Shown here piece by piece: positions 27,867 to 60,723 of a DNA stretch of 64,000 bases. The stretch is from Candidatus Microgenomates bacterium. GTDB taxonomy: Bacteria; Patescibacteriota; Microgenomatia; JACQLA01. The first letter of the stretch is position 1. Each line of letters opens with the position of its first letter. Under the pieces are notes generated by a model. The model did no database searches. It had not been told where the DNA came from and saw only the letters and a program-made list of their open reading frames with translations. The position numbers and the translations under genes are program-made. The stretch is taken from contig JACQLA010000005.1 in the NCBI GenBank assembly GCA_016204255.1, forward strand, positions 68,339 to 132,338. The letters run 5' to 3'.

Positions 27867-29708
27867 ATGAAATCGTTTCTTCTTGAAGATTTAAATAGTC
27901 AACAGCAATCAGCCGTAAGTCAAACAGACGGTCCAATTTTAATTCTGGCAGGCGCCGGATCCGGCAAAACCAGAGTCTTAACCTATAAAATTGCCTATCT
28001 TATTGCCCAAAGCGGTGTCAGTCCGGAAAATATTTTGGCTTTAACTTTTACAAACAAAGCCGCCGCCGAAATGAAAAACCGAATTAAAAAATTAGTTGCT
28101 CGTTCCCCTGAGGCGACCTCCAAATTACCTTGGGCAAGCACTTTCCACTCATTTTGTGCCAGAATATTAAGAATTGAGGGCAAACATATTGATCTGGCGC
28201 CAAATTTTTTAATTTACGACCAGGCTGATCAAAAAGAGCTGATAAAAGCGGTGCTAAAAAAACTTGATCTTTCCCCCAAGAGCTTTTCCCCGGCGTCCGT
28301 CTTAAATACCATCAGCGGAGCTAAAAACGAACTAATTTCTGCTTTAGAATATTTACAGTACGCAAAGGGTTTTTGGCAGGAAACTGTCACCAAGATTTAT
28401 CTGGAATATCAAAAAGCGCTAGTTGCCAACTCGGCTTTAGATTTTGATGATCTGCTTTTAAAAACAAATGAGCTTTTTCAAAAGAATTCTTCCGTCTTAC
28501 AAAAATACCAAGATCGCTTTCATCATCTTCTTATTGATGAGTACCAAGACACAAATAACGCTCAATACCAATTAGGTAAGATGCTTGCCGGAAGATGGCG
28601 AAATATATGTGTGGTGGGCGATGCCTCTCAAAGTATTTACTCTTGGCGGGGAGCAGATTTTCGAAACCTCACCCGGTTTCAAGAGGATTTTCCTGATTTA
28701 AAGATCTTTAATCTGGAACAAAATTACCGATCGACCCAGAAAATTTTGGATGCCGCCTACGCCGTTATTACTCACAACCAATCTCATCCCATTCTAAAAC
28801 TTTGGACCGAAAATCCAGGCGGCGAAAAAGTAAATCTTTATAGTGCTCAAAACGAACATGATGAGGCAGAATTTATCGCCAACACCATTATTAATTACAA
28901 TGGTGTTCTTGGAGATTTTGCCGTTTTATATCGGACCAATGCCCAGTCGCGTGTTTTGGAAGAAGTTTTTTTACGCTCAGGACTACCCTATGCGCTCGTA
29001 GGAGGAACCAGATTTTATGAACGGCGGGAAATTAAGGATGTTTTAGCCTATTTAAAAATCTTCCATAATCCTAAGGATACCGTTTCTCTTAATCGGCTTG
29101 AAAAAATAGGAAAAACCCGTCTTAAAAAATTTATGGAATTTAACGAAGTCTCGAAAAAAAACCCCGAGCGAAATTTAACAACCTCTTATCTTCTTGATCA
29201 AATTTTGACAATTACGGGCTACCTAGATCTTTACGATCCTAAAGTTGAAGAGGAACTGATGCGGCTTGAGAACATTAAAGAGCTTGGAAGTGTGGCTCAA
29301 GAATTCCCTGACTTAGGCCAATTTCTGGAAAATGTGGCGCTTGTGGAGCAGGAGTATCTGCCCGACAGCTCAGCTCAGATCGAACAAACAGAAAGAATAA
29401 CTCTTATGACTCTCCACACGGCTAAAGGTCTGGAGTTCCCGGTGGTGTTTATTATCGGGATGGAGGAAGGAATTTTTCCCCATTCAAAAAGCCTTTTTGA
29501 TAAACAAGAACTTGAAGAGGAAAGGCGTCTTTGTTATGTTGGCTTTACCCGGGCGAAAAAAATGCTCTATCTGACCCATGCTGCACGCAGACTTTTTTTT
29601 GGCACTCAAACCGCCAATTTTATTTCCCGCTTCGTTTTAGATCTGCCGGAAAATTTAGTTACCCCGCTTTCTAGTCAGCAAACTCTACGCCAGGGCAGTT
29701 TTGGGTAA
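27867..29708 (+). CDS. UvrD/PcrA-type ATP-dependent DNA helicase (613 aa)
   Basis: It contains motif I (AGAGSGKTRVL), motif II (LIDEYQDTN), the motifs VGDASQSIYSWRGA, TLHTAKGLEF and YVGFTRAK. Confidence 0.9.
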   Translation: MKSFLLEDLNSQQQSAVSQTDGPILILAGAGSGKTRVLTYKIAYLIAQSGVSPENILALTFTNKAAAEMKNRIKKLVARSPEATSKLPWASTFHSFCARILRIEGKHIDLAPNFLIYDQADQKELIKAVLKKLDLSPKSFSPASVLNTISGAKNELISALEYLQYAKGFWQETVTKIYLEYQKALVANSALDFDDLLLKTNELFQKNSSVLQKYQDRFHHLLIDEYQDTNNAQYQLGKMLAGRWRNICVVGDASQSIYSWRGADFRNLTRFQEDFPDLKIFNLEQNYRSTQKILDAAYAVITHNQSHPILKLWTENPGGEKVNLYSAQNEHDEAEFIANTIINYNGVLGDFAVLYRTNAQSRVLEEVFLRSGLPYALVGGTRFYERREIKDVLAYLKIFHNPKDTVSLNRLEKIGKTRLKKFMEFNEVSKKNPERNLTTSYLLDQILTITGYLDLYDPKVEEELMRLENIKELGSVAQEFPDLGQFLENVALVEQEYLPDSSAQIEQTERITLMTLHTAKGLEFPVVFIIGMEEGIFPHSKSLFDKQELEEERRLCYVGFTRAKKMLYLTHAARRLFFGTQTANFISRFVLDLPENLVTPLSSQQTLRQGSFG

Positions 29709-32940: not shown

Positions 32941-35850
32941 CTAATCAGTATCACAAAGAAGCTTATACTCGCAATATTTACAAAGCTCGCTTTTGGTACA
33001 ACGGAAATCAGATTGAGCGATTTTTTCCGCCCAAGAAAAAATTTCTTCTTTGGCTTTTTCCAACTGTTCTTTAGTCCGCACTGTTGTTATCTTTTGGCTA
33101 TTTTCAAAAAAATAAAGGCTCAAAAAAACTTCCTCCGGTTTTTTGCCTAATGGCGGCTCCAGCACTTCAGTGGCGGCCAAAGCGTATATCGTCAACTGTA
33201 AATTTTGATCAACTTCCTTTTGACTGGGAGGACGACTACCGGTTTTATAATCAATAATTTCAATTTTTCCATCTCCTAAGGAATCAACCCGATCAAGCCT
33301 TCCCACAACTCGAAAACTCCTCAGAGGGAAAACAAAAGATTTTTCCAAGGCCAACGGGGTGATTTGAGAATCCTTTGTTTTTAGCCAAAACTCGTGCAAA
33401 AATCTTTCTCCCTGTTGAAAGAGTAAATCTTCATGCTTTTTACTTTTATAACCCTCCCCAACCCAGTTTTCCTTAAGTAGGGCTAAAAGTTTCTCTTCTC
33501 CCGGATTTTTATCAGTAATTTTCAACCGGTAAAAATCCCGCAACGCCGCATGTAAACTAATGCCAAAAGATTGAGCAGATGAGGGAGGGGTGGGAATTTT
33601 TAAAATAAATTTTAATTTATAATGAAGAGGGCAATTCATAAAGGCCTCAATTTGAGAGTACGAAAGATAGAGAGGTCGAGAGTTCAATCTATTAACCGCT
33701 GTTTCCGGCTCCACCGGCTTAGCCCATTCTAAAAAAGAGAGTTGTTTACTTGAGGCGTTGATTTTTTGTTTCCCAAATACTTCTTCTCCTAGCGCCTCCC
33801 CTACAAAGGGCGAAATTTTTCTTTCACGTTTACCCTCACCATAAAAATTGGCCGATGTTAAAAAAAGTCGATCTTTAGCTCTGGTCATTCCGACATAAAA
33901 AAGCCTGCGCTCTTCCTCTAAATGAGCATCGCCCTCGGGCAGAATTTCTTTTATTAAATCCTGGGGAATGGGAATTTGCTCCTGGCGTTCAGTTGTAGGA
34001 AAACGCTGGGCAACCAAATTAACTAAGAAAACTACCGGAAACTCAAGGCCCTTAGAAGAATGAACTGTTAAAAGATTAACGGCGTTTACTTCCGCCCAAT
34101 CGGTATCTGAAGCCTGGGGTGATTCCCCCAATTCCTGTGACATTTCAATCCAGTCAACTACCGCCGAAACGGCAGCATCCTCGTGGGTAACTTCATAACT
34201 TTTAATTTTTCCAAAAAACTTAGAGACGTTTTGGGCACGCTTTTCATCCTGGGCATTTTTATACACCGTCAAACTAGATAAAAGACCGGAGTCGGAAAGG
34301 AAATAGTAAAGGATTTGGCCAGCGCTTTCCTTGGATAAAAGTTTCAGATGACGATTTACCATCGCCACAATTTTTTCTAATTTTATTTTTGTTTCCTCAC
34401 TGATAATCGGTCTGGTGTTGGCTATTAAGCGGCCATTTTCTTTTCCGGTGGCCAACTCACAGGATTCAAGTAAGGAAAGGTTGGTTTTTTTAGCGAAGCT
34501 TGTCAATGCCGCTACGTCCCGGGCGGAAATCTCAAAAATATCCATTGCTAAAACCCGATAAAAAGCAACCGAGTCTTCAACGTTATACAAAACCTTAAGG
34601 TAGGCAATTAAATCCTTTACCTCCGGCTGACGGAAAAGCATTCCCGGTCCTAAAAATTGATAGGGGACCCCCGCACGAACCAAAGCCCGGGTAAAAGGTT
34701 CGGCGTGAGAATTGGCCCGAAATAAAATAGCAAAATCTTTAAATTCATAGTTCGTTTTTTTAAGTTGTTTAATCTTTCGGGCGATTTCTTCAGCTTCATC
34801 TTCGACTCGCTCCGCATGAATCCACTCCACCTTTTCCTCGTCCACTTTTCTCATCCGCTTAAGATTTTTACTAATCCCCAGTTTTACTTCCAGGGTATCG
34901 GGATCGTTAAATTTAATCAGGCGATGAGCGTGATCAAGAATAGTTTGGGTTGAGCGATAATTTTTGGTCAAAATAACTTGTTTGACTCTCTTGTACTCCT
35001 CCATAAATTGTAGAATATTGGAAATAGCCGCCCCGCGGAATTTATAAATTGACTGAGAATCATCCCCAACAACCGTCAAATTGGGATTTTCCATAGGAGG
35101 AGCTAAGATTTTTAAAAGATTGTACTGGGCAAAATTAGTATCTTGGAACTCATCAACCAAAACATATTTGAATTGCTTTTGATATTGACTCAAAATATTT
35201 GGTCTGGCGCGAAAAAGTTTAAGGGTATTGGCTATTAAATCGGCAAAATCAGCCATTCCTCCCTTAGTTTTAAGCTCTTCATAAATTCGGTAGGCCTTGA
35301 CCAATTCTAATATTTTTTTCCTTTCTTCCTCTGGCAGATTTTGACCCTTAGTAAAATTTAGGTATTCTTCCGGCTCGATATCTTCATCTTTGAGCCGGGA
35401 AAAATGCTGGAGCATCCCCCCAATAAATTTATTTGGGTTGCCTAAAGGACGGAAGTAATTCAGCTCAAATTTAAAAAGACTGGCTCGTAGAAAAATTATC
35501 GTCTCTGCCTCCGTCATTAAGCGATAATCGGGGCTAAGACCAATATGGACTGCCTCATTCCGAAGGACCCGATCGCAAAAGGAGTGGAAGGTGGAAATCC
35601 ACATCTGAGTGTAGCCGTAAGGCATAGCTATATCGACTCTCTCCTCCATTTCCCGCACCGCTTTTTCAGTAAAAGTGAGGGCTAAAATTTCGGCCGGGTG
35701 GGCCAGATTTTGGGAAATCAACCATTTAATCCGCTCTGTTACCACCGTTGTTTTGCCGGTTCCGGCGCCGGCAATTATTAGAAGGGGACCCTTGTCATGT
35801 TTTACCGCCTCCAGTTGTTCATCATTCAATTTTTTTTCGCCGTTGCTCAC
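32941..35850 (-). CDS. UvrD-type helicase fused to a C-terminal Fe-S PD-(D/E)XK (AddB/Cas4-like) nuclease
   Basis: The helicase motifs AGAGTGKTTVV, VDEFQDTN, VGDDSQSIYKFRGA, TVHSSKGLEF and YVGMTRAK are present. The C-terminus has NCPLHYK, GRLDRVD, IIDYKTG and C-x5-C-x2-C-x5-C (CTKSELCKYCEYKLLC). Confidence 0.85.
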   Translation of the reverse strand: MSNGEKKLNDEQLEAVKHDKGPLLIIAGAGTGKTTVVTERIKWLISQNLAHPAEILALTFTEKAVREMEERVDIAMPYGYTQMWISTFHSFCDRVLRNEAVHIGLSPDYRLMTEAETIIFLRASLFKFELNYFRPLGNPNKFIGGMLQHFSRLKDEDIEPEEYLNFTKGQNLPEEERKKILELVKAYRIYEELKTKGGMADFADLIANTLKLFRARPNILSQYQKQFKYVLVDEFQDTNFAQYNLLKILAPPMENPNLTVVGDDSQSIYKFRGAAISNILQFMEEYKRVKQVILTKNYRSTQTILDHAHRLIKFNDPDTLEVKLGISKNLKRMRKVDEEKVEWIHAERVEDEAEEIARKIKQLKKTNYEFKDFAILFRANSHAEPFTRALVRAGVPYQFLGPGMLFRQPEVKDLIAYLKVLYNVEDSVAFYRVLAMDIFEISARDVAALTSFAKKTNLSLLESCELATGKENGRLIANTRPIISEETKIKLEKIVAMVNRHLKLLSKESAGQILYYFLSDSGLLSSLTVYKNAQDEKRAQNVSKFFGKIKSYEVTHEDAAVSAVVDWIEMSQELGESPQASDTDWAEVNAVNLLTVHSSKGLEFPVVFLVNLVAQRFPTTERQEQIPIPQDLIKEILPEGDAHLEEERRLFYVGMTRAKDRLFLTSANFYGEGKRERKISPFVGEALGEEVFGKQKINASSKQLSFLEWAKPVEPETAVNRLNSRPLYLSYSQIEAFMNCPLHYKLKFILKIPTPPSSAQSFGISLHAALRDFYRLKITDKNPGEEKLLALLKENWVGEGYKSKKHEDLLFQQGERFLHEFWLKTKDSQITPLALEKSFVFPLRSFRVVGRLDRVDSLGDGKIEIIDYKTGSRPPSQKEVDQNLQLTIYALAATEVLEPPLGKKPEEVFLSLYFFENSQKITTVRTKEQLEKAKEEIFSWAEKIAQSDFRCTKSELCKYCEYKLLCDTD

Positions 35851-35959
35851 CGCCTAATTTTACCATAAAAAATGCTTCGGTCTGATTAAAATTCGATTTC
35901 TTGCTGTTTTCTTACACATTTTTGATTGCTTTTTGACTTTAAAAGTGCAAATTATAACC

Positions 35960-36073
35960 GTGGGGGCAAACGTCTGGAAACATTTAAAAATTAAAATTTA
36001 ACCGGGCGCCCCACACTTAAAGTACAACTCTCGCTATGTGGAGATGATTCCCTAAGGCGAGAGTTGTTTTTTT
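35960..36073 (+). ncRNA. candidate small RNA or cis-regulatory leader (long hairpin + intrinsic terminator)
   Basis: Hairpin 1 pairs gtgggg (35960-65) with ccccac (36009-14) and cgtctgg (35971-77) with ccgggcg (36002-08, two G-U pairs), closing a 24-nt AU loop. Hairpin 2 is the terminator at 36024-36073. No plus-strand gene lies upstream. Confidence 0.35.
36024..36073 (+). terminator. rho-independent terminator-like hairpin
   Basis: A perfect 11-bp stem, acaactctcgc / gcgagagttgt, is followed by a run of 7 T. It sits 15 nt before the ATG at 36089. Confidence 0.6.
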
Positions 36074-36088
36074 GCTATACTTAGCATT

Positions 36089-36648
36089 ATGACCTTATGG
36101 AGAAGTTGGCAGTATAAGAATCTCACGATCTTTTCTTTAGGCCTCGCGGTTGCCTTCGCGTTATCAAGGCTTGAAGGATTCCATAATTTTTACTACATCT
36201 GGGCGGCTTTGATTATCTTGGCGCTTTTATTGCCGGAGGGCTTTTTGTTTCGACTTTTACCGTTGGCACCGGCATCATTATCCTTTTAGTCCTGACTCAA
36301 ACTTTAACCCCCCTGGAAATAGCTGTAATTGCAGGGCTGGGGGCGGTTTTGGGTGATTTTACCATTTTCCGGCTTGTTAAAAACAACCTGACAAACGAGT
36401 TAGTAAACATTTACAATCATTTTGACAGCAATCATCATTTCAAAAGACTCCTTCATTCAAAATATTTCAGCTGGACCTTGCCGGTTGTCGGTGCGCTTAT
36501 TATCGCCTCGCCTTTGCCGGATGAATTGGGCGTAAGTTTAATGGGAATTTCTAAGATGAAAACTTATCAGTTTTTAATTATTTCCTTCATCTTAAATACC
36601 ATCGGAATATTTCTGGTTGTTTCAGCCTCTTTGGTTTTAAAACCATAG
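36089..36648 (+). pseudogene. DedA/YqaA-like membrane protein gene split by a frameshift at a T5 run (or a homopolymer sequencing error)
   Basis: The track ORFs 36089..36289 and 36349..36648 are in different frames. The second frame is open back to 36187 and reads FLLHLGGFDYLGAFIAGGLFVSTFTVGTGIIILLVLTQTLTPLEIAVIAGLGAVLGDFTIF. The two frames meet at ttttt (36187-36191). Confidence 0.55.
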
Positions 36649-36750
36649 TTTCTTAAAAACTTAGCTGTTTTCAAGTGCTTGATTTTGCTCATTTTGAGGT
36701 TCGTGTTAAAATTAGCCTTATAATATAATACTAAAATTTCTATTTAATTT

Positions 36751-38970
36751 ATGAAGCAGACCGTCCTTGCTGTTTTTTTTATTGCCATAATTGTCAGTCT
36801 TGTCGCGGTTTCTTTTACTATAAATCAGGTGGGTCAAGAAGAAAAACGGCTAAGTGTTGATCTCCAACATCGCTCAACGCTTCTTGCAGAAAGTCTTAGG
36901 GAAACCATCGAACCAAACTTTATAAATAAATCAGATAAGTATTTGCAGGATGTTGTAGAAAAGTTTGCGAATAAAGAAAGATTTGCCGGGCTGGCTGTCT
37001 ACGACAATAAAGGAATTGTCATTGCTATTTCTTCTAGTTTGCCCAAAGAAATTTCGGAGTCACAAAAAATTGCTTCTGATGTTATGGATGGCGACAAAGC
37101 CAATGGCGACTTTATCACCTTTGGTGATAAAAAAATGTACCTTTTTGCGATTCCTCTTCGTGATGAAAAAAGCGTAGTTGGGGCATTGATGATTGCACAA
37201 AATGCCGGGTATATCGACTCACGCTTGCAAGAAATTTGGAGAAACAATTTAATAAGATTATTTGCGCAGGTTTTTCTCCTATCAATTGCCGTGATTCTTT
37301 TTTTACAATGGGTTATTTATAAACCTATGCGGAATCTGGTGGAATCTTTAAGGCTGGCCCGATCAGGAGCAAGGTCCCTTGCTATTCCAATCCATCCATT
37401 TTTCCAACCACTGGCTAAAGAGATTTCAAACATTAATCGCAGTCTTATAGAAGCGCAGTTAAGCGCCAGCGAGGAAGCAAGAATGAATCTGGAAAAATTA
37501 GATTCTCCCTGGACCGAAGAAAGATTAAAGGAATTTGTAAAAGATATCTTGAAAGATAAATCAATCGTTGTGGTTTCAAATAGAGAACCATATATTCACA
37601 CTAAAGTCGGGAATAAAATTAATTATTATTTTCCGGCAAGCGGCATGGCAACCGCAATTGAACCAATGATGCAGGCCTGCGGAGGAACTTGGATTGCTCA
37701 CGGAGGCGGAGATGCCGACAGACTCACAGTTGATAAGAATAATGAACTCCAGGTCCCGCCTGATGAACCAAAATATACCCTAAGACGAGTCTGGCTAAGC
37801 GAGGAAGAAGAAAAGGGATATTATTATGGTTTTTCCAACGAAGGAATGTGGGCTCTGTGCCACATAGCACATACTCGGCCTATTTTTAGAAAAAACGACT
37901 GGGAGGAGTATAAAAAGGTGAATGGTAAATTTGCCAAAACTGTGCTTACCAAGATACGAGATCTTCAAAACCCCATCATCTTGATTCAAGACTTTCATTT
38001 CTCTCTTTTGCCGCGAATGATCAAAAATAGCAGGCCCGATGCAACAATAGGACTTTTTTGGCACACCCCTTGGGTCAGTGCAGAGTCCTTTAGTATCTGC
38101 CCCTGGAGAAAAGAAATTTTAGATGGTATGCTGGGCGCCGATTTAATCGGCTTTCATATTCAGCTTCATTGCAATAACTTTATTGAAACCGTTGGAAAGG
38201 AGCTTGAATCTTTGATTAACTTTGAACAATTTACTATCACTCGAGATGACCATATTTCATTAATAAAATCTTTCCCCATCAGCATTGCTTTTTCTAACGG
38301 GAAGTCACAACAGCAAAAAGAAAACTTCGATAAGGAAGGACTTTTAAAAAGCTTGGGGATAAAAACAAAATATATCGGAGTTGGGGTTGACCGCCTGGAT
38401 TACACAAAAGGAATTTTAGAGCGCATCAAAGCAATTGAAATTTTTCTTCAAAACTACCCCTCATATCGGGAGTATTTTACTTTCATTCAAATCGCCGCAC
38501 CAAGCCGGAGTAAAATAAAAAGGTATCGGGAGTTTGCTCAAGAAGTAGAGAAAGAGGTAGAACGTGTTAACTCACGCTTTAAAATAAAAAATTGGAAACC
38601 GATAATTCTTATAGAAAGACATCACAGCCATGAAGAAATTAATCAGTTTTATCAACTCGCTAATTTTTGCTTGGTGACGTCTATCCATGATGGGATGAAT
38701 TTAGTGGCCAAAGAATTTGTTGCCGCAAGAAACGATGAAATGGGTGTGCTTATTTTAAGCCAGTTTACTGGTGCTTCACGGGAACTAAAAGACGCCCTGA
38801 TTGTTAATCCATACAATGGAGAACAAACTGCTGAAGCAATATACACTGCTTTGTCTATGAGGGCTTCCGAACAAAAAAAGCGCATGAAAAAATTAAGGGG
38901 AACCGTTAGAAACTATAATGTCTACCGTTGGTCAGCTGAGTTTTTGAAAACTTTAGTAAATTTAAGCTAA
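36751..38970 (+). CDS. otsA: trehalose-6-phosphate synthase (GT20) with N-terminal TM-sensor-TM-HAMP-like module
   Basis: From about residue 270 the sequence is a canonical GT20 OtsA core (VVVSNREPY, WIAHGGG, GFSNEGMWALCH, IQDFHF, LFWHTPW, GVDRLDYTKG, DGMNLVAKEF, ILSQFTGA). Residues 1-270 contain two TM helices flanking a ~150-aa extracytoplasmic domain, then an amphipathic HAMP-like linker. Confidence 0.87.
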   Translation: MKQTVLAVFFIAIIVSLVAVSFTINQVGQEEKRLSVDLQHRSTLLAESLRETIEPNFINKSDKYLQDVVEKFANKERFAGLAVYDNKGIVIAISSSLPKEISESQKIASDVMDGDKANGDFITFGDKKMYLFAIPLRDEKSVVGALMIAQNAGYIDSRLQEIWRNNLIRLFAQVFLLSIAVILFLQWVIYKPMRNLVESLRLARSGARSLAIPIHPFFQPLAKEISNINRSLIEAQLSASEEARMNLEKLDSPWTEERLKEFVKDILKDKSIVVVSNREPYIHTKVGNKINYYFPASGMATAIEPMMQACGGTWIAHGGGDADRLTVDKNNELQVPPDEPKYTLRRVWLSEEEEKGYYYGFSNEGMWALCHIAHTRPIFRKNDWEEYKKVNGKFAKTVLTKIRDLQNPIILIQDFHFSLLPRMIKNSRPDATIGLFWHTPWVSAESFSICPWRKEILDGMLGADLIGFHIQLHCNNFIETVGKELESLINFEQFTITRDDHISLIKSFPISIAFSNGKSQQQKENFDKEGLLKSLGIKTKYIGVGVDRLDYTKGILERIKAIEIFLQNYPSYREYFTFIQIAAPSRSKIKRYREFAQEVEKEVERVNSRFKIKNWKPIILIERHHSHEEINQFYQLANFCLVTSIHDGMNLVAKEFVAARNDEMGVLILSQFTGASRELKDALIVNPYNGEQTAEAIYTALSMRASEQKKRMKKLRGTVRNYNVYRWSAEFLKTLVNLS

Positions 38971-38972
38971 TC

Positions 38973-39854
38973 ATGAAGGTCTTTCATAAACCTATAAAAA
39001 ACGATTATTTCCATGCGCTTCAAAGGCTTGAAATGGCCTTAAAAAAGGATGATTCTCAAAATTTAGATCTTCGCGAGTTCTGGAAAGGAGTGGTTCGAGA
39101 CCCTGAAGGACGGTGGACAAAATATTGCGCCCAAGGAATTAAATATTTTAAATACGGTAAACAATCTAGACCAAATCTAACCACTAAAGAAGACTTTAAT
39201 TTCATAATCGCTGCAATCAAACAGGAAAAAGCCTTTCTTAAAGGTCTTCAGAACAAAAGCTTTCGTAACTACAAACACTGGCTTATTACCCTACATAAAA
39301 AACAGGCCTATAAAGGCCATGGAGGCAGAATTTTGCCTAAAAGGAGGATTTCAATGGGCGAACACAGCAAAATAGTTAAAGATGCTGTTTTGCCTTTAGC
39401 AAAAAAATATTCCGACCCCTATACCAATAGCGGTTTACAAGTTCTGCGGTTAGCCGGAATAGGTCGGAATGGACGGCCTATGGATGAGTGGAAAAACAAA
39501 AACGAAGTTATCCATTATTATCCCGACCCAGATTATTTTGATGATTACCTTCAAATAATGAAAAAAAAACTGCAGGAATTTACTTACGAATCAACAAAGC
39601 CTTTTAGCATGAACATTTTAATTTTAATTGCAAACTATTTCCAGTATGGCGTTAACACGCACCTGTTTGAAGACATTAACCAAAGCTTGTTCGCCAACCA
39701 GGCAAATGCGATGCTAAAATACTTGGGATTAAAACCGGTTGAGCAGGGAATTCTTGATTTTACAGCGATGAGATTGCAACCGAAAAACTTTGCAAGATAC
39801 TTCATTGATGAAGTGAAAAAGGCCAATCCTAACAATCATTTTTATGAAAAATAA
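38973..39854 (+). CDS. hypothetical protein with a degenerate Fic-like motif (HLFEDINQS)
   Basis: The 293-aa ORF starts 3 nt after otsA. The segment THLFEDINQSLFANQANAMLKYLGLKP aligns position by position with the Fic core HPFxDGNGRxxRxxxNxxLxxxGxxP but lacks the G, G and R residues. Confidence 0.6.
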   Translation: MKVFHKPIKNDYFHALQRLEMALKKDDSQNLDLREFWKGVVRDPEGRWTKYCAQGIKYFKYGKQSRPNLTTKEDFNFIIAAIKQEKAFLKGLQNKSFRNYKHWLITLHKKQAYKGHGGRILPKRRISMGEHSKIVKDAVLPLAKKYSDPYTNSGLQVLRLAGIGRNGRPMDEWKNKNEVIHYYPDPDYFDDYLQIMKKKLQEFTYESTKPFSMNILILIANYFQYGVNTHLFEDINQSLFANQANAMLKYLGLKPVEQGILDFTAMRLQPKNFARYFIDEVKKANPNNHFYEK

Positions 39855-59054: not shown

Positions 59055-59540
59055 ATGAGTAAAATAATCCGTCTAACTAAAGCTACCACAATAAGCCAAA
59101 AATTAAGGGGTGCCGGAAAAACTATAGTCTTGGTTGGTGGTTGTTTTGATATTCTTCATTTAGGGCATATTAAATTCCTGGAGGAAGCAAAAAAAGCGGA
59201 CGGCATCCTTTTTATCGCCTTAGAAAGCGATCATAATGTTCGTCGGCGTAAAGGAGGCGCCCGCCCGATAAACTCTCAGAAAGACCGGGCTAAAATTCTG
59301 GCTGCCTTAAAACATGTCGATTTTGTGATCCTTCTACCCGACATGCGAGGATTCGATAATTATTTTGAGATGGTTGAAACAATCAATCCGCATTTCATTG
59401 CCGTCACCGAGGGTGATTATCATTTTGATCTTAAAAAAAGGCAGGCGGAAAAAATAGGCGCTCAAATTTTGGTTGTCACGCCCGTTTTACGAACAAAATC
59501 CACTACCAAGATTGCTCAACTTTTGGAAAAGGAAATCTAA
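59055..59540 (+). CDS. cytidylyltransferase-like (HxGH nucleotidyltransferase superfamily) protein
   Basis: The segment VLVGGCFDILHLGHIKFLEEAKK is present. The 161-aa single domain is RfaE-II/TagD-like. Confidence 0.78.
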   Translation: MSKIIRLTKATTISQKLRGAGKTIVLVGGCFDILHLGHIKFLEEAKKADGILFIALESDHNVRRRKGGARPINSQKDRAKILAALKHVDFVILLPDMRGFDNYFEMVETINPHFIAVTEGDYHFDLKKRQAEKIGAQILVVTPVLRTKSTTKIAQLLEKEI

Positions 59541-59562
59541 TTCTGAATTTAAGGAGAGAAAA

Positions 59563-60723
59563 ATGCGTATCTTAGGAATTGAGAGCTCTTGTGATGAAAC
59601 CGGGGCGGCGATTGTCGAAGACGGAACAAAAATTTTATCCAATATTGTTGCCTCCTCTCAGGAATTACATATAAAAACCGGTGGCATTATTCCGGAAGTT
59701 GCCTCGCGCGAACAAATCAAATATATTGTTCCGGTCATCAATCAAGCACTTAAAGGAGCACTTCCTGAAACTCTAAACTCTGCGCCATATGTCCTGTCTC
59801 AAATAGACGCCATCGCAGTTACGGTTGGCCCAGGACTCATCGGCTCACTTTTGGTCGGCGTGGAAACAGCCAAAACATTGGCCTACCTTTGGAATAAACC
59901 GATTATCCCCGCTAACCATTTACTCGCTCATCTTTATGCTAACTGGGTCTCTCCCTTGTTATCGCAAGACCATAAAGTGGCGAAGCAATCCCTTAATCTC
60001 AATAGTAAGATTGCCGCGTCGCCTACGGCTCCTCGCAATGACGAATCTCAAACTCCAAGCTTCCCCGCCGTCGCTTTGATTGCTTCCGGCGGTCATACCG
60101 ACCTCCTTTTAATAAAGAATCACGGTAAAATCCGGTGGCTGGGAGGAACACGGGATGACGCGGCCGGTGAGGCTTTTGACAAAATCGCCCGACTTTTAGA
60201 ACTCCCCTATCCCGGCGGACCGGAAATTGCGGCCGAAGCCACAAAACTAAAAACTAAAAACTTAAAACTTACAATTAAGTTGCCGCGCCCATTGATGGAC
60301 GCCGATGATTTTGACTTCAGTTTTAGTGGACTAAAAACCGCTGTTTTAAGAGAAGTCAATAATCTCAAGGCTAAACACTATAATGATACATATTATTATA
60401 GTGAAATAATTCCTTCACTCGCCTACGAGGTTCAAGAGGCCATTACGGATGTTTTAGTTACTAAAACCATCCGCGCCGCCCAAAAATATCGGGTTAAATC
60501 AATCTTACTCGGCGGCGGTGTTGTGGCCAATGAAAGACTTCGAGAAAAAATGTCAAAATCTGTTCTTAAGTTTTTTGGTTCTTCAGTTTCAATGTTTGTG
60601 CCTCCGACCCGATTGTGCACCGATAATGCCGTCGTCATCGCTTCAGCCGCCTTTTTTAATTATAAACCTGTTCCTTGGAAAAAAATCCAAGCCCACCCGG
60701 ATCTTTACTTCCAGTCTCAATAG
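59563..60723 (+). CDS. tsaD: tRNA N6-adenosine threonylcarbamoyltransferase TsaD, with an internal ~30-aa insertion
   Basis: The motifs MRILGIESSCDETGAAIVE, GPGLIGSLLVG, ANHLLAH, SGGHT, DDAAGEAFDK and YPGGP are present. An SD sequence (aaggagag) lies upstream of the ATG at 59563, so the track start at 59473 is not used. Confidence 0.93.
   Translation: MRILGIESSCDETGAAIVEDGTKILSNIVASSQELHIKTGGIIPEVASREQIKYIVPVINQALKGALPETLNSAPYVLSQIDAIAVTVGPGLIGSLLVGVETAKTLAYLWNKPIIPANHLLAHLYANWVSPLLSQDHKVAKQSLNLNSKIAASPTAPRNDESQTPSFPAVALIASGGHTDLLLIKNHGKIRWLGGTRDDAAGEAFDKIARLLELPYPGGPEIAAEATKLKTKNLKLTIKLPRPLMDADDFDFSFSGLKTAVLREVNNLKAKHYNDTYYYSEIIPSLAYEVQEAITDVLVTKTIRAAQKYRVKSILLGGGVVANERLREKMSKSVLKFFGSSVSMFVPPTRLCTDNAVVIASAAFFNYKPVPWKKIQAHPDLYFQSQ
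59958..60042. repeat. GTCATT-type palindromic element copy embedded in frame in tsaD
   Basis: The sequence gttatcgcaag...ggcgaagcaatcc...aagattgcc...ctcgcaatgac is colinear with element b at 41852-41956. Confidence 0.7.

Follow-up and report, generated by a model that had tools for sequence, protein, structure and literature searches.

A WalK-like Cache and HAMP-like module fused to a predicted trehalose-6-phosphate synthase in Patescibacteria

The known outputs of Cache-HAMP receptors are kinases, chemoreceptor arrays and second-messenger enzymes. WalK (YycG) of the Bacillota, which likewise comes from a cell without an outer membrane, is built in the order first transmembrane helix (TM1), single Cache/PAS-like domain, second transmembrane helix (TM2) and HAMP, has PAS, DHp and CA kinase domains beyond it, and signals via WalR to transcription. 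DgcN/YfiN (HAMP-GGDEF) and the mycobacterial HAMP adenylyl cyclases follow a one-polypeptide logic, in which outside sensor, HAMP and cytoplasmic enzyme form a single chain whose outputs are second messengers read by further receptors. To our knowledge, no known bacterial OtsA (trehalose-6-phosphate synthase) carries a transmembrane sensor. Known bacterial OtsA enzymes are soluble and are regulated by expression, by feedback or through the mycobacterial interfacial allosteric site (PMC6879718). Here, we analyzed a 64,000-nucleotide window of a Candidatus Microgenomates bacterium (assembly GCA_016204255.1, contig JACQLA010000005.1, positions 68,339 to 132,338; GC content ~40%), in which an open reading frame (ORF) at 36751-38970 on the plus strand joins a WalK-like N-terminal module to a GT20 (OtsA-type) catalytic domain. 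From sequence, structural models and analogy, we lean towards the view that the product of this ORF combines transmembrane receptor and enzyme in one component, in which GT20 would be under direct signal control. Unlike that of WalK, to which the protein is 17-20% identical, the relay ends on a GT-B enzyme, and no WalH/WalI-like partners were seen; in contrast to DgcN/YfiN and the cyclases, the predicted output itself belongs to central or compatible-solute metabolism.

The gene begins with an ATG and encodes 739 amino acids (aa); in NCBI, its product (MBI4100614.1) is named merely "trehalose-6-phosphate synthase." Kyte-Doolittle windows above 1.6 give exactly two transmembrane segments, namely, TM1 at residues ~4-24 (36760-36822; all features of the gene lie on the plus strand), which contains VLAVFFIAIIVSLVAVSF, and TM2 at residues 167-190 (37249-37320), LIRLFAQVFLLSIAVILFLQWVIY. 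The 142 aa between them (residues 25-166) correspond well to the original prediction, made from the DNA letters alone, of two membrane helices flanking an extracytoplasmic domain of about 150 aa. TM1 is 21 residues long in 63/63 full-length homologues, and TM2 is invariantly 24 residues long in the same set, with a helix that AlphaFold2 (AF2) models as continuous with the helices on either side. The five Lys/Arg residues just past TM2 and the requirement of the catalytic domain for cytoplasmic substrates fix the topology, with a short N terminus in the cytoplasm, a middle domain outside and a C terminus in the cytoplasm. An internal start codon had been considered at the outset; since M1 and the 21-residue TM1 align without indels across the 63 homologues, the start at M1 is genuine. 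The GT20 domain occupies residues 271-735, so the span originally singled out (36751-37560, residues 1-270) is exactly the noncatalytic extension.

The domain outside the membrane (residues 25-166; 36823-37248) was assigned to a single Cache/PDC fold of the WalK type through profiles against the PDB, AF2, Foldseek and Pfam, and the N terminus is thus more than the plain anchor that had been kept in mind as an alternative. The AF2 model (mean predicted local distance difference test [pLDDT] score, 80.2) has the canonical PDC order of secondary structure; a long stalk helix continuous with TM1 is followed by a2-b1-b2-a3-b3-b4-b5, and the final Cache helix runs unbroken through TM2 to residue 205. 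This PDC fold, a long N-terminal helix and a helix-flanked five-stranded sheet set between two transmembrane segments, was also recovered by Foldseek, whose top match in the PDB was a full-length WalK model (E of 6e-11, query TM-score [TMq] of 0.69). Because that match spans 264 columns, TM1, Cache, TM2 and HAMP superpose on the WalK model jointly. The next matches were crystals of the WalK extracellular domain (target TM-scores [TMt] of 0.71-0.74), followed by the Cache/PDC sensors KinD, DcuS, DctB, Tlp3 and Mlp24. A profile of 23 homologous N termini, run against PDB sequences, likewise found the WalK extracellular domain (E of 1.6e-4 to 8e-4, residues 31-162). On its own, the window protein falls below the Pfam gathering scores for Cache_WalK (19.9 versus 27 bits), sCache_3_2 (18.6 versus 28.4) and dCache_1 (16.2 versus 45), and single-sequence scans of its N terminus with Pfam and NCBIfam gave only weak, subthreshold matches to these three models and to the N termini of DgcN/YfiN and AtoS. 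We therefore relied on family profiles, structure prediction and profile-profile comparison. Among 69 family members, Pfam detects sCache_3_2 in 35, dCache_1 in 33 and Cache_WalK in 19; the best E values among relatives lie in the range of 1e-8 to 1e-6 (1.3e-8 for sCache_3_2, and 1.4e-6 and 5.6e-7 for the other two models). Residues R41, P55, G80, D113, Y130, P135 and G144 of the domain are invariant in the family, and its conserved polar residues are R41, D85, S94, D113, Y130, H137 and Q150.

We regard the segment that follows TM2 (residues 191-236; 37321-37458) as a divergent HAMP-like module, on the basis of AF2 and profile-profile comparison; its dimeric four-helix bundle is putative, the AF2 model being a monomer. 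The amphipathic linker sequences quoted in the original prediction lie at residues 191-245. The anatomy is that of HAMP, with ~50 residues placed right after TM2, a proline (P192) 2 residues past its end, a 15-residue helix (AS1, 191-205), a connector (206-219) and a 17-residue helix (AS2, 220-236) in which P220, E224, L232 and A235 are invariant. AF2 shows a helix up to residue 205, a loop at 206-215 and a second long helix at 216-249, and the connector (14-19 aa in the 63 homologues) is the sole part of the module that tolerates indels. When the family segment was aligned by hhalign with seven HAMP domains (Af1503, Tsr, EnvZ, NarX, CpxA and two from WalK, each verified by Pfam at E of 1e-9 to 1e-17), the two profiles matched over 51 columns, proline on proline, with a probability of 81% and an E of 1.2e-5. 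The score of 28.9 compares with 7.8 for the reversed alignment and 9.0 ± 2.0 (maximum, 13.4) for 60 column shuffles. Profile-profile comparison suggests that the linker is HAMP-like, and the Pfam HAMP model misses the divergent segment; the wider N-terminal profile, run against PDB sequences, reached the Af1503 HAMP only at an E of 0.6. Among the long members, Pfam finds HAMP in just one, the 913-aa P0049 (E of 1e-3, below the cutoff); in this protein, the sensor region occurs a second time at the N terminus, ~175 aa before the matched region, in a tandem Cache-like arrangement.

The best-conserved part of the whole protein is neither the sensor nor the enzyme; it is the output helix and junction between them (residues 237-270; 37459-37560; alignment consensus ASEEARxRLEKLDSPWTAERLKEF), in which LDSPWT and a single short helix form the junction to the N-lobe of GT20. 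Mean consensus is 0.80-0.82 here, compared to 0.76 for GT20, 0.62 for Cache and 0.54 for TM1, and mean pairwise identity is 0.72 versus 0.66 for GT20. The segment is of fixed length in the 63 sequences, with E242, A243, P253, W254, T255 and L259 invariant, and more generally, residues 153-205 and 220-270 contain no indels in any of the 63 full-length proteins. A mechanical relay would be expected to leave such a pattern of conservation; a passive tether would not.

The catalytic domain (residues 271-735; 37561-38955) matches Pfam PF00982 with an E of 6e-118 and 394.9 bits (cutoff, 32.5), covering profile positions 2-471 of 473, and its closest relatives in the PDB are Mycolicibacterium thermoresistibile OtsA (E of 7.5e-78), Candida and Aspergillus Tps1, and Escherichia coli OtsA. 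As in OtsA and Tps1 of known structure (E. coli 1GZ5/1UQU, M. thermoresistibile 5JIJ and Candida 5HUT), GT20 is full length, and the donor and acceptor motifs are shared. Alignment with the M. thermoresistibile and Candida enzymes places SNRxP, GFSNxxxWxLxH, DFHFxLLP, FWHTPW, GVDRLDYTKG, PSR and DGMNLVAKE, with SG where OtsA has GG; the roles of motif residues follow the literature, including PMC6879718. The claim of a complete GT20 domain joined to the N-terminal module is thereby borne out. Because these motifs are intact and Trehalose_PPase lies downstream in many loci (see below), the domain is predicted to synthesize trehalose 6-phosphate (T6P).

The fusion is not confined to this genome. 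An exhaustive HMMER search with an N-terminal profile matched 1662 cluster representatives at E <= 1e-3, of which 180 reached E <= 1e-30, and every long match tested combined the N-terminal module with GT20, the sole exception being a fusion to a second enzyme (P0096, described below). A GTDB species scan, with one genome per species, found relatives in at least 191 species genomes; GT20 proteins with this N-terminal extension form a conserved family. At the locus level, we considered the best 80 of these 191 genomes. All 80 are Patescibacteria, from Davies-, Levy-, Gottesman- and Curtissbacteria, Parcubacteria lineages, Peribacteria and Saccharibacteria-labelled bins, and GT20 lies in the same ORF in 79 of the 81 sensor-bearing ORFs of those loci. 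A homologue from Rokubacteria (L001, 8001-10198) shares 28% identity and the architecture of the family in the candidate phyla radiation (CPR); its annotation as two genes reflects nothing more than a run of N within the ORF. The 79 of 81 ORFs, the 191 species genomes and the divergent Rokubacteria copy together indicate that the sensor-GT20 fusion is stable and old. Some genomes contain two paralogous sensor-OtsA genes (L083, 5128-7407 and 8199-10448; L011 and L036 of assembly MFDZ01), those of L083 being in tandem with otsB between them, which hints at differing input specificities. Many loci (L008, L012, L016 and others) come from binchicken coassemblies titled "uncultured Gammaproteobacteria"; their proteins are 55-66% identical to those of Daviesbacteria and Levybacteria, and the titles look like placeholders or wrong taxonomy.

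The neighborhood of the gene in these relatives is that of a trehalose pathway. Trehalose_PPase (OtsB) is encoded directly downstream on the same strand, with a median gap of 3 nt, in 41 of the 80 loci, and OtsB lies within 4.5 kb downstream in ~39 of the 71 loci that have at least 1 kb of downstream sequence. An MGH1-like or trehalase-like hydrolase is found near the fusion gene, often after OtsB, in 20 loci, and in 14 to 17 loci, a GT4 glycosyltransferase gene lies directly downstream instead. No conserved gene for an extracellular partner was seen across the 80 loci. This pattern of neighbors indicates that the family is embedded in a trehalose operon and supports T6P as the product. The window itself is atypical. 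As originally noted, no otsB follows the fusion gene, and tblastn, an OtsB hidden Markov model (HMM) run on the six-frame translation and Pfam scans of 45 ORFs of at least 110 aa found no OtsB anywhere in the 64 kb; tblastn, HMM and the same Pfam scans likewise found no TreS, TreY, TreZ or trehalase homologue in the window. With otsB downstream in ~39 of 71 relatives, in most cases as the immediate neighbor, its absence here sets this genome apart.

The position of otsB is taken here by another gene (38973-39854, plus strand), whose ATG at 38973 follows the fusion-gene stop (TAA, 38968-38970) by 2 nt and which is likely cotranscribed with the fusion gene. The neighbor had been described as a Fic-like protein 3 nt away; the spacing found here is 2 nt, and the fold assignment stands. 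The 293-aa product, which has no match in Pfam (including Fic) or NCBIfam, is modeled by AF2 with high scores (pLDDT, 93; predicted TM-score [pTM], 0.92) as a Fido (Fic/Doc/AvrB) fold, and Foldseek places it with AvrB, FICD/HYPE, AnkX or further Fic proteins in 47 of its 50 top matches, the best being AvrB (E of 7.7e-5, TM-score of 0.51), then FICD and AnkX. Its Fic motif, HLFEDINQSLFA, is degenerate, the Gly, Arg and Arg positions of HPFx[DE]GNGRxxR being lost, and the motif His is Arg in three homologues. AvrB, a Fido-family rhamnosyltransferase of Pseudomonas syringae, also lacks the canonical motif. The neighbor differs from AvrB in sequence (8-11% identity) and in having no secreted-effector context. 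Given that AvrB is a UDP-rhamnose-dependent glycosyltransferase (PMC10866546), the likeness provides a lead for possible nucleotide-sugar binding by the neighbor. In relatives (L015, 8226-9839; L040, 8199-9890; P0197, P0198 and P0205), the Fido-like domain is fused to the C terminus of OtsB, which ties it functionally to the trehalose pathway; in the window and in L019 (8237-9139), the phosphatase half is absent, and the Fido-like protein occupies the otsB slot. We considered whether the Fido-like ORF was a cryptic OtsB, as an HMM match (E of 5.6e-7) had indicated, and rejected this as an artifact of two OtsB-Fido fusions in the seed; it was through this artifact that the OtsB-Fido fusion was discovered. 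A role as a conserved partner of the sensor-OtsA family was also rejected, the ORF being present in only 3 of 80 loci. The Fido-like family is small, with 29 database matches and no Pfam model.

The same radiation has joined a homologous module to a second enzyme. In five patescibacterial clusters (P0096 and P0222-P0225; 682-717 aa), GCS2 (glutamate-cysteine ligase family 2) takes the place of GT20 behind a TM-Cache-TM-AS1-AS2 module, so that the output is a GCS2 ligase; otherwise, this domain is found free-standing (~455 aa) in CPR and DPANN. The GCS2-fusion module is 30% identical to the window protein over residues 21-228 (E of 7e-31), and the homology stops at the second HAMP-like helix, a point that marks the boundary of the module. 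A representative locus is L086 (8001-10049). Chimeric assembly was ruled out as the origin of these fusions by the five clusters, by contigs of up to 316 kb with an ordinary CPR context and by the presence of P0225 on 10 contigs.

How might such a protein work? Anatomy, folds, conservation and the family-wide linkage to otsB were observed directly; from architecture and conservation, we infer signal-controlled synthesis. As with other Cache-HAMP receptors, the receptor-enzyme would act as a dimer. The Cache domain would sense a ligand or the state of the envelope outside the membrane, and the signal would travel along TM2, cross the HAMP-like bundle and reach the junction, which in turn would bias those elements of the OtsA N-lobe that close over UDP-glucose and glucose-6-phosphate. 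In this way, T6P synthesis could be switched on or off posttranslationally, without a kinase, a regulator or a second messenger; OtsB, encoded next door in most relatives, would complete the path to trehalose, and here the AvrB-like Fido protein stands in its place at the locus. A lever of this kind is plausible because OtsA has mobile elements close to its N terminus, where helix a1 and the Arg35-Gly39 loop shift by ~12 Å upon substrate binding, closing the active site (PMC6879718). The equivalent elements begin ~25 residues past the junction. As for the cue, the homologous domain of WalK has been proposed to sense peptidoglycan cleavage products (PMC7299342), which by analogy suggests envelope state as a first guess.

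Several observations weigh against this reading. The extracellular signal of WalK itself is only partly defined. At the level of single sequences, the HAMP signature is weak; Pfam PF00672 has no match at E <= 10 in the window segment, one of three segments tested reached an E of 0.054, HAMP is outside the 25 most frequent Pfam families among the 69 members, nearly all relatives being missed, and a family profile restricted to the HAMP-like part returned chance matches (ClpB and Exo70) and no HAMP among PDB sequences. In the AF2 model, a proline-containing loop at residues 250-255 (pLDDT, 61-67) interrupts the output helix before the enzyme. The linker of the GCS2 fusions is proline rich and probably flexible and has no LDSPWT junction, which fits tethering better than a rigid lever and counts against a universal rigid-lever mechanism. 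The GT20 domain also misses the cutoff of the NCBIfam OtsA equivalog TIGR02400 (429.8 versus 564.85 bits), a score that is nonetheless well above the 296 bits obtained with the model for GgpS (glucosylglycerol-phosphate synthase).

One alternative, which we judge less probable though it deserves serious attention, is that the module serves only as an anchor or scaffold that tethers and dimerizes OtsA at the membrane, with the Cache domain binding an envelope component for localization and not for control of catalysis, for instance, so that T6P or trehalose would be made in step with the synthesis or export of envelope glycoconjugates. The GT4 glycosyltransferase gene directly downstream in 14 to 17 loci would suit this arrangement, as would the flexible GCS2-fusion linker, the loop ahead of GT20 and the weak HAMP signature. 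A simple anchor, however, needs no 142-aa folded domain with invariant polar residues, no helical relay of fixed length and no junction conserved above the enzyme, and it is TM1 that is the least conserved segment, with the relay elements invariant in length. It may instead be that the end product in this genome is not free trehalose and that either T6P itself or a product of the AvrB-like protein, which could be a sugar- or nucleotide-sugar-dependent modification, is the output. This we consider improbable, even with no OtsB in 64 kb, a Fido-like protein that stands in the otsB slot and is OtsB-fused in relatives, and a best structural match, AvrB, that uses a UDP-sugar (PMC10866546); the search covers 64 kb of a genome that may encode OtsB or some generic HAD phosphatase elsewhere, and the Fido motif is degenerate with a His that is not invariant, the TM-score to AvrB being 0.51.

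HAMP relays in proteins of the LapD type can work in both directions, and one of the structural matches is to the output domain that a LapD orthologue has in the periplasm (4u64, E of 1.2e-3). Accordingly, GT20 might read sugar-nucleotide or sugar-phosphate status inside the cell, with the relay altering the binding of a partner outside. We think this very unlikely; the catalytic motifs are intact and otsB is syntenic, so GT20 looks like a working pathway enzyme rather than a degenerate sensor, the 80 loci contain no conserved gene for an extracellular partner, and WalK-type domains score far above LapD. Direct signal control of GT20 by a receptor-enzyme is the account that we favor.

On a broader view, it is possible, and we put this forward tentatively, that Patescibacteria use a portable WalK-like Cache-HAMP cassette that gates metabolic enzymes (OtsA and, in a sister family, a GCS2 ligase) from outside the cell as one-protein stress-protectant signaling, and that the OtsB-Fido fusions give the trehalose operon a nucleotide-sugar-dependent branch that has so far gone unrecognized. 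Full-text literature searches returned nothing relevant on sensor- or HAMP-fused OtsA or on trehalose synthesis in Patescibacteria. The parts are known, and they are combined along familiar lines; what appears to be undescribed is the class of output, a GT-B biosynthetic enzyme, together with the use of the cassette on a second metabolic enzyme. If true, the direct coupling to such an enzyme would extend Cache-HAMP logic to metabolism itself and would offer a tractable model of how a HAMP relay controls an output that is not a dimerizing helix. Patescibacteria have small genomes and few regulators. For these uncultured, regulator-poor CPR bacteria, the family would be a rare testable clue to how the surface is sensed and answered via trehalose and possibly gamma-glutamyl compounds. 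From a practical viewpoint, several hundred database entries labeled "trehalose-6-phosphate synthase" conceal a sensor module, and this module could be a natural scaffold for ligand-gated sugar synthesis.

The genes surrounding the fusion gene in the window are housekeeping genes. Scans for promoters and terminators around the fusion gene gave no signal above shuffles. The gap of 900 bp upstream of it (35851-36750) contains just two small hydrophobic ORFs, one of 66 aa (36089-36289) and one of 99 aa (36349-36648) with a weak VTT/DedA match (E of 0.027), which may represent a split or decayed membrane-protein gene. Two UvrD-family helicases are encoded near each other, at 32941-35850 (minus strand) and 27867-29708 (plus strand); the 969-aa helicase has a C-terminal PD-(D/E)XK nuclease in an AddA/AddB-like fusion. 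Farther along, at 59473-60723 (plus strand), lies a TsaD homologue of 416 aa whose Pfam match falls in two stretches, the best of which starts at residue 193, and this suggests an N-terminal extension or fusion.

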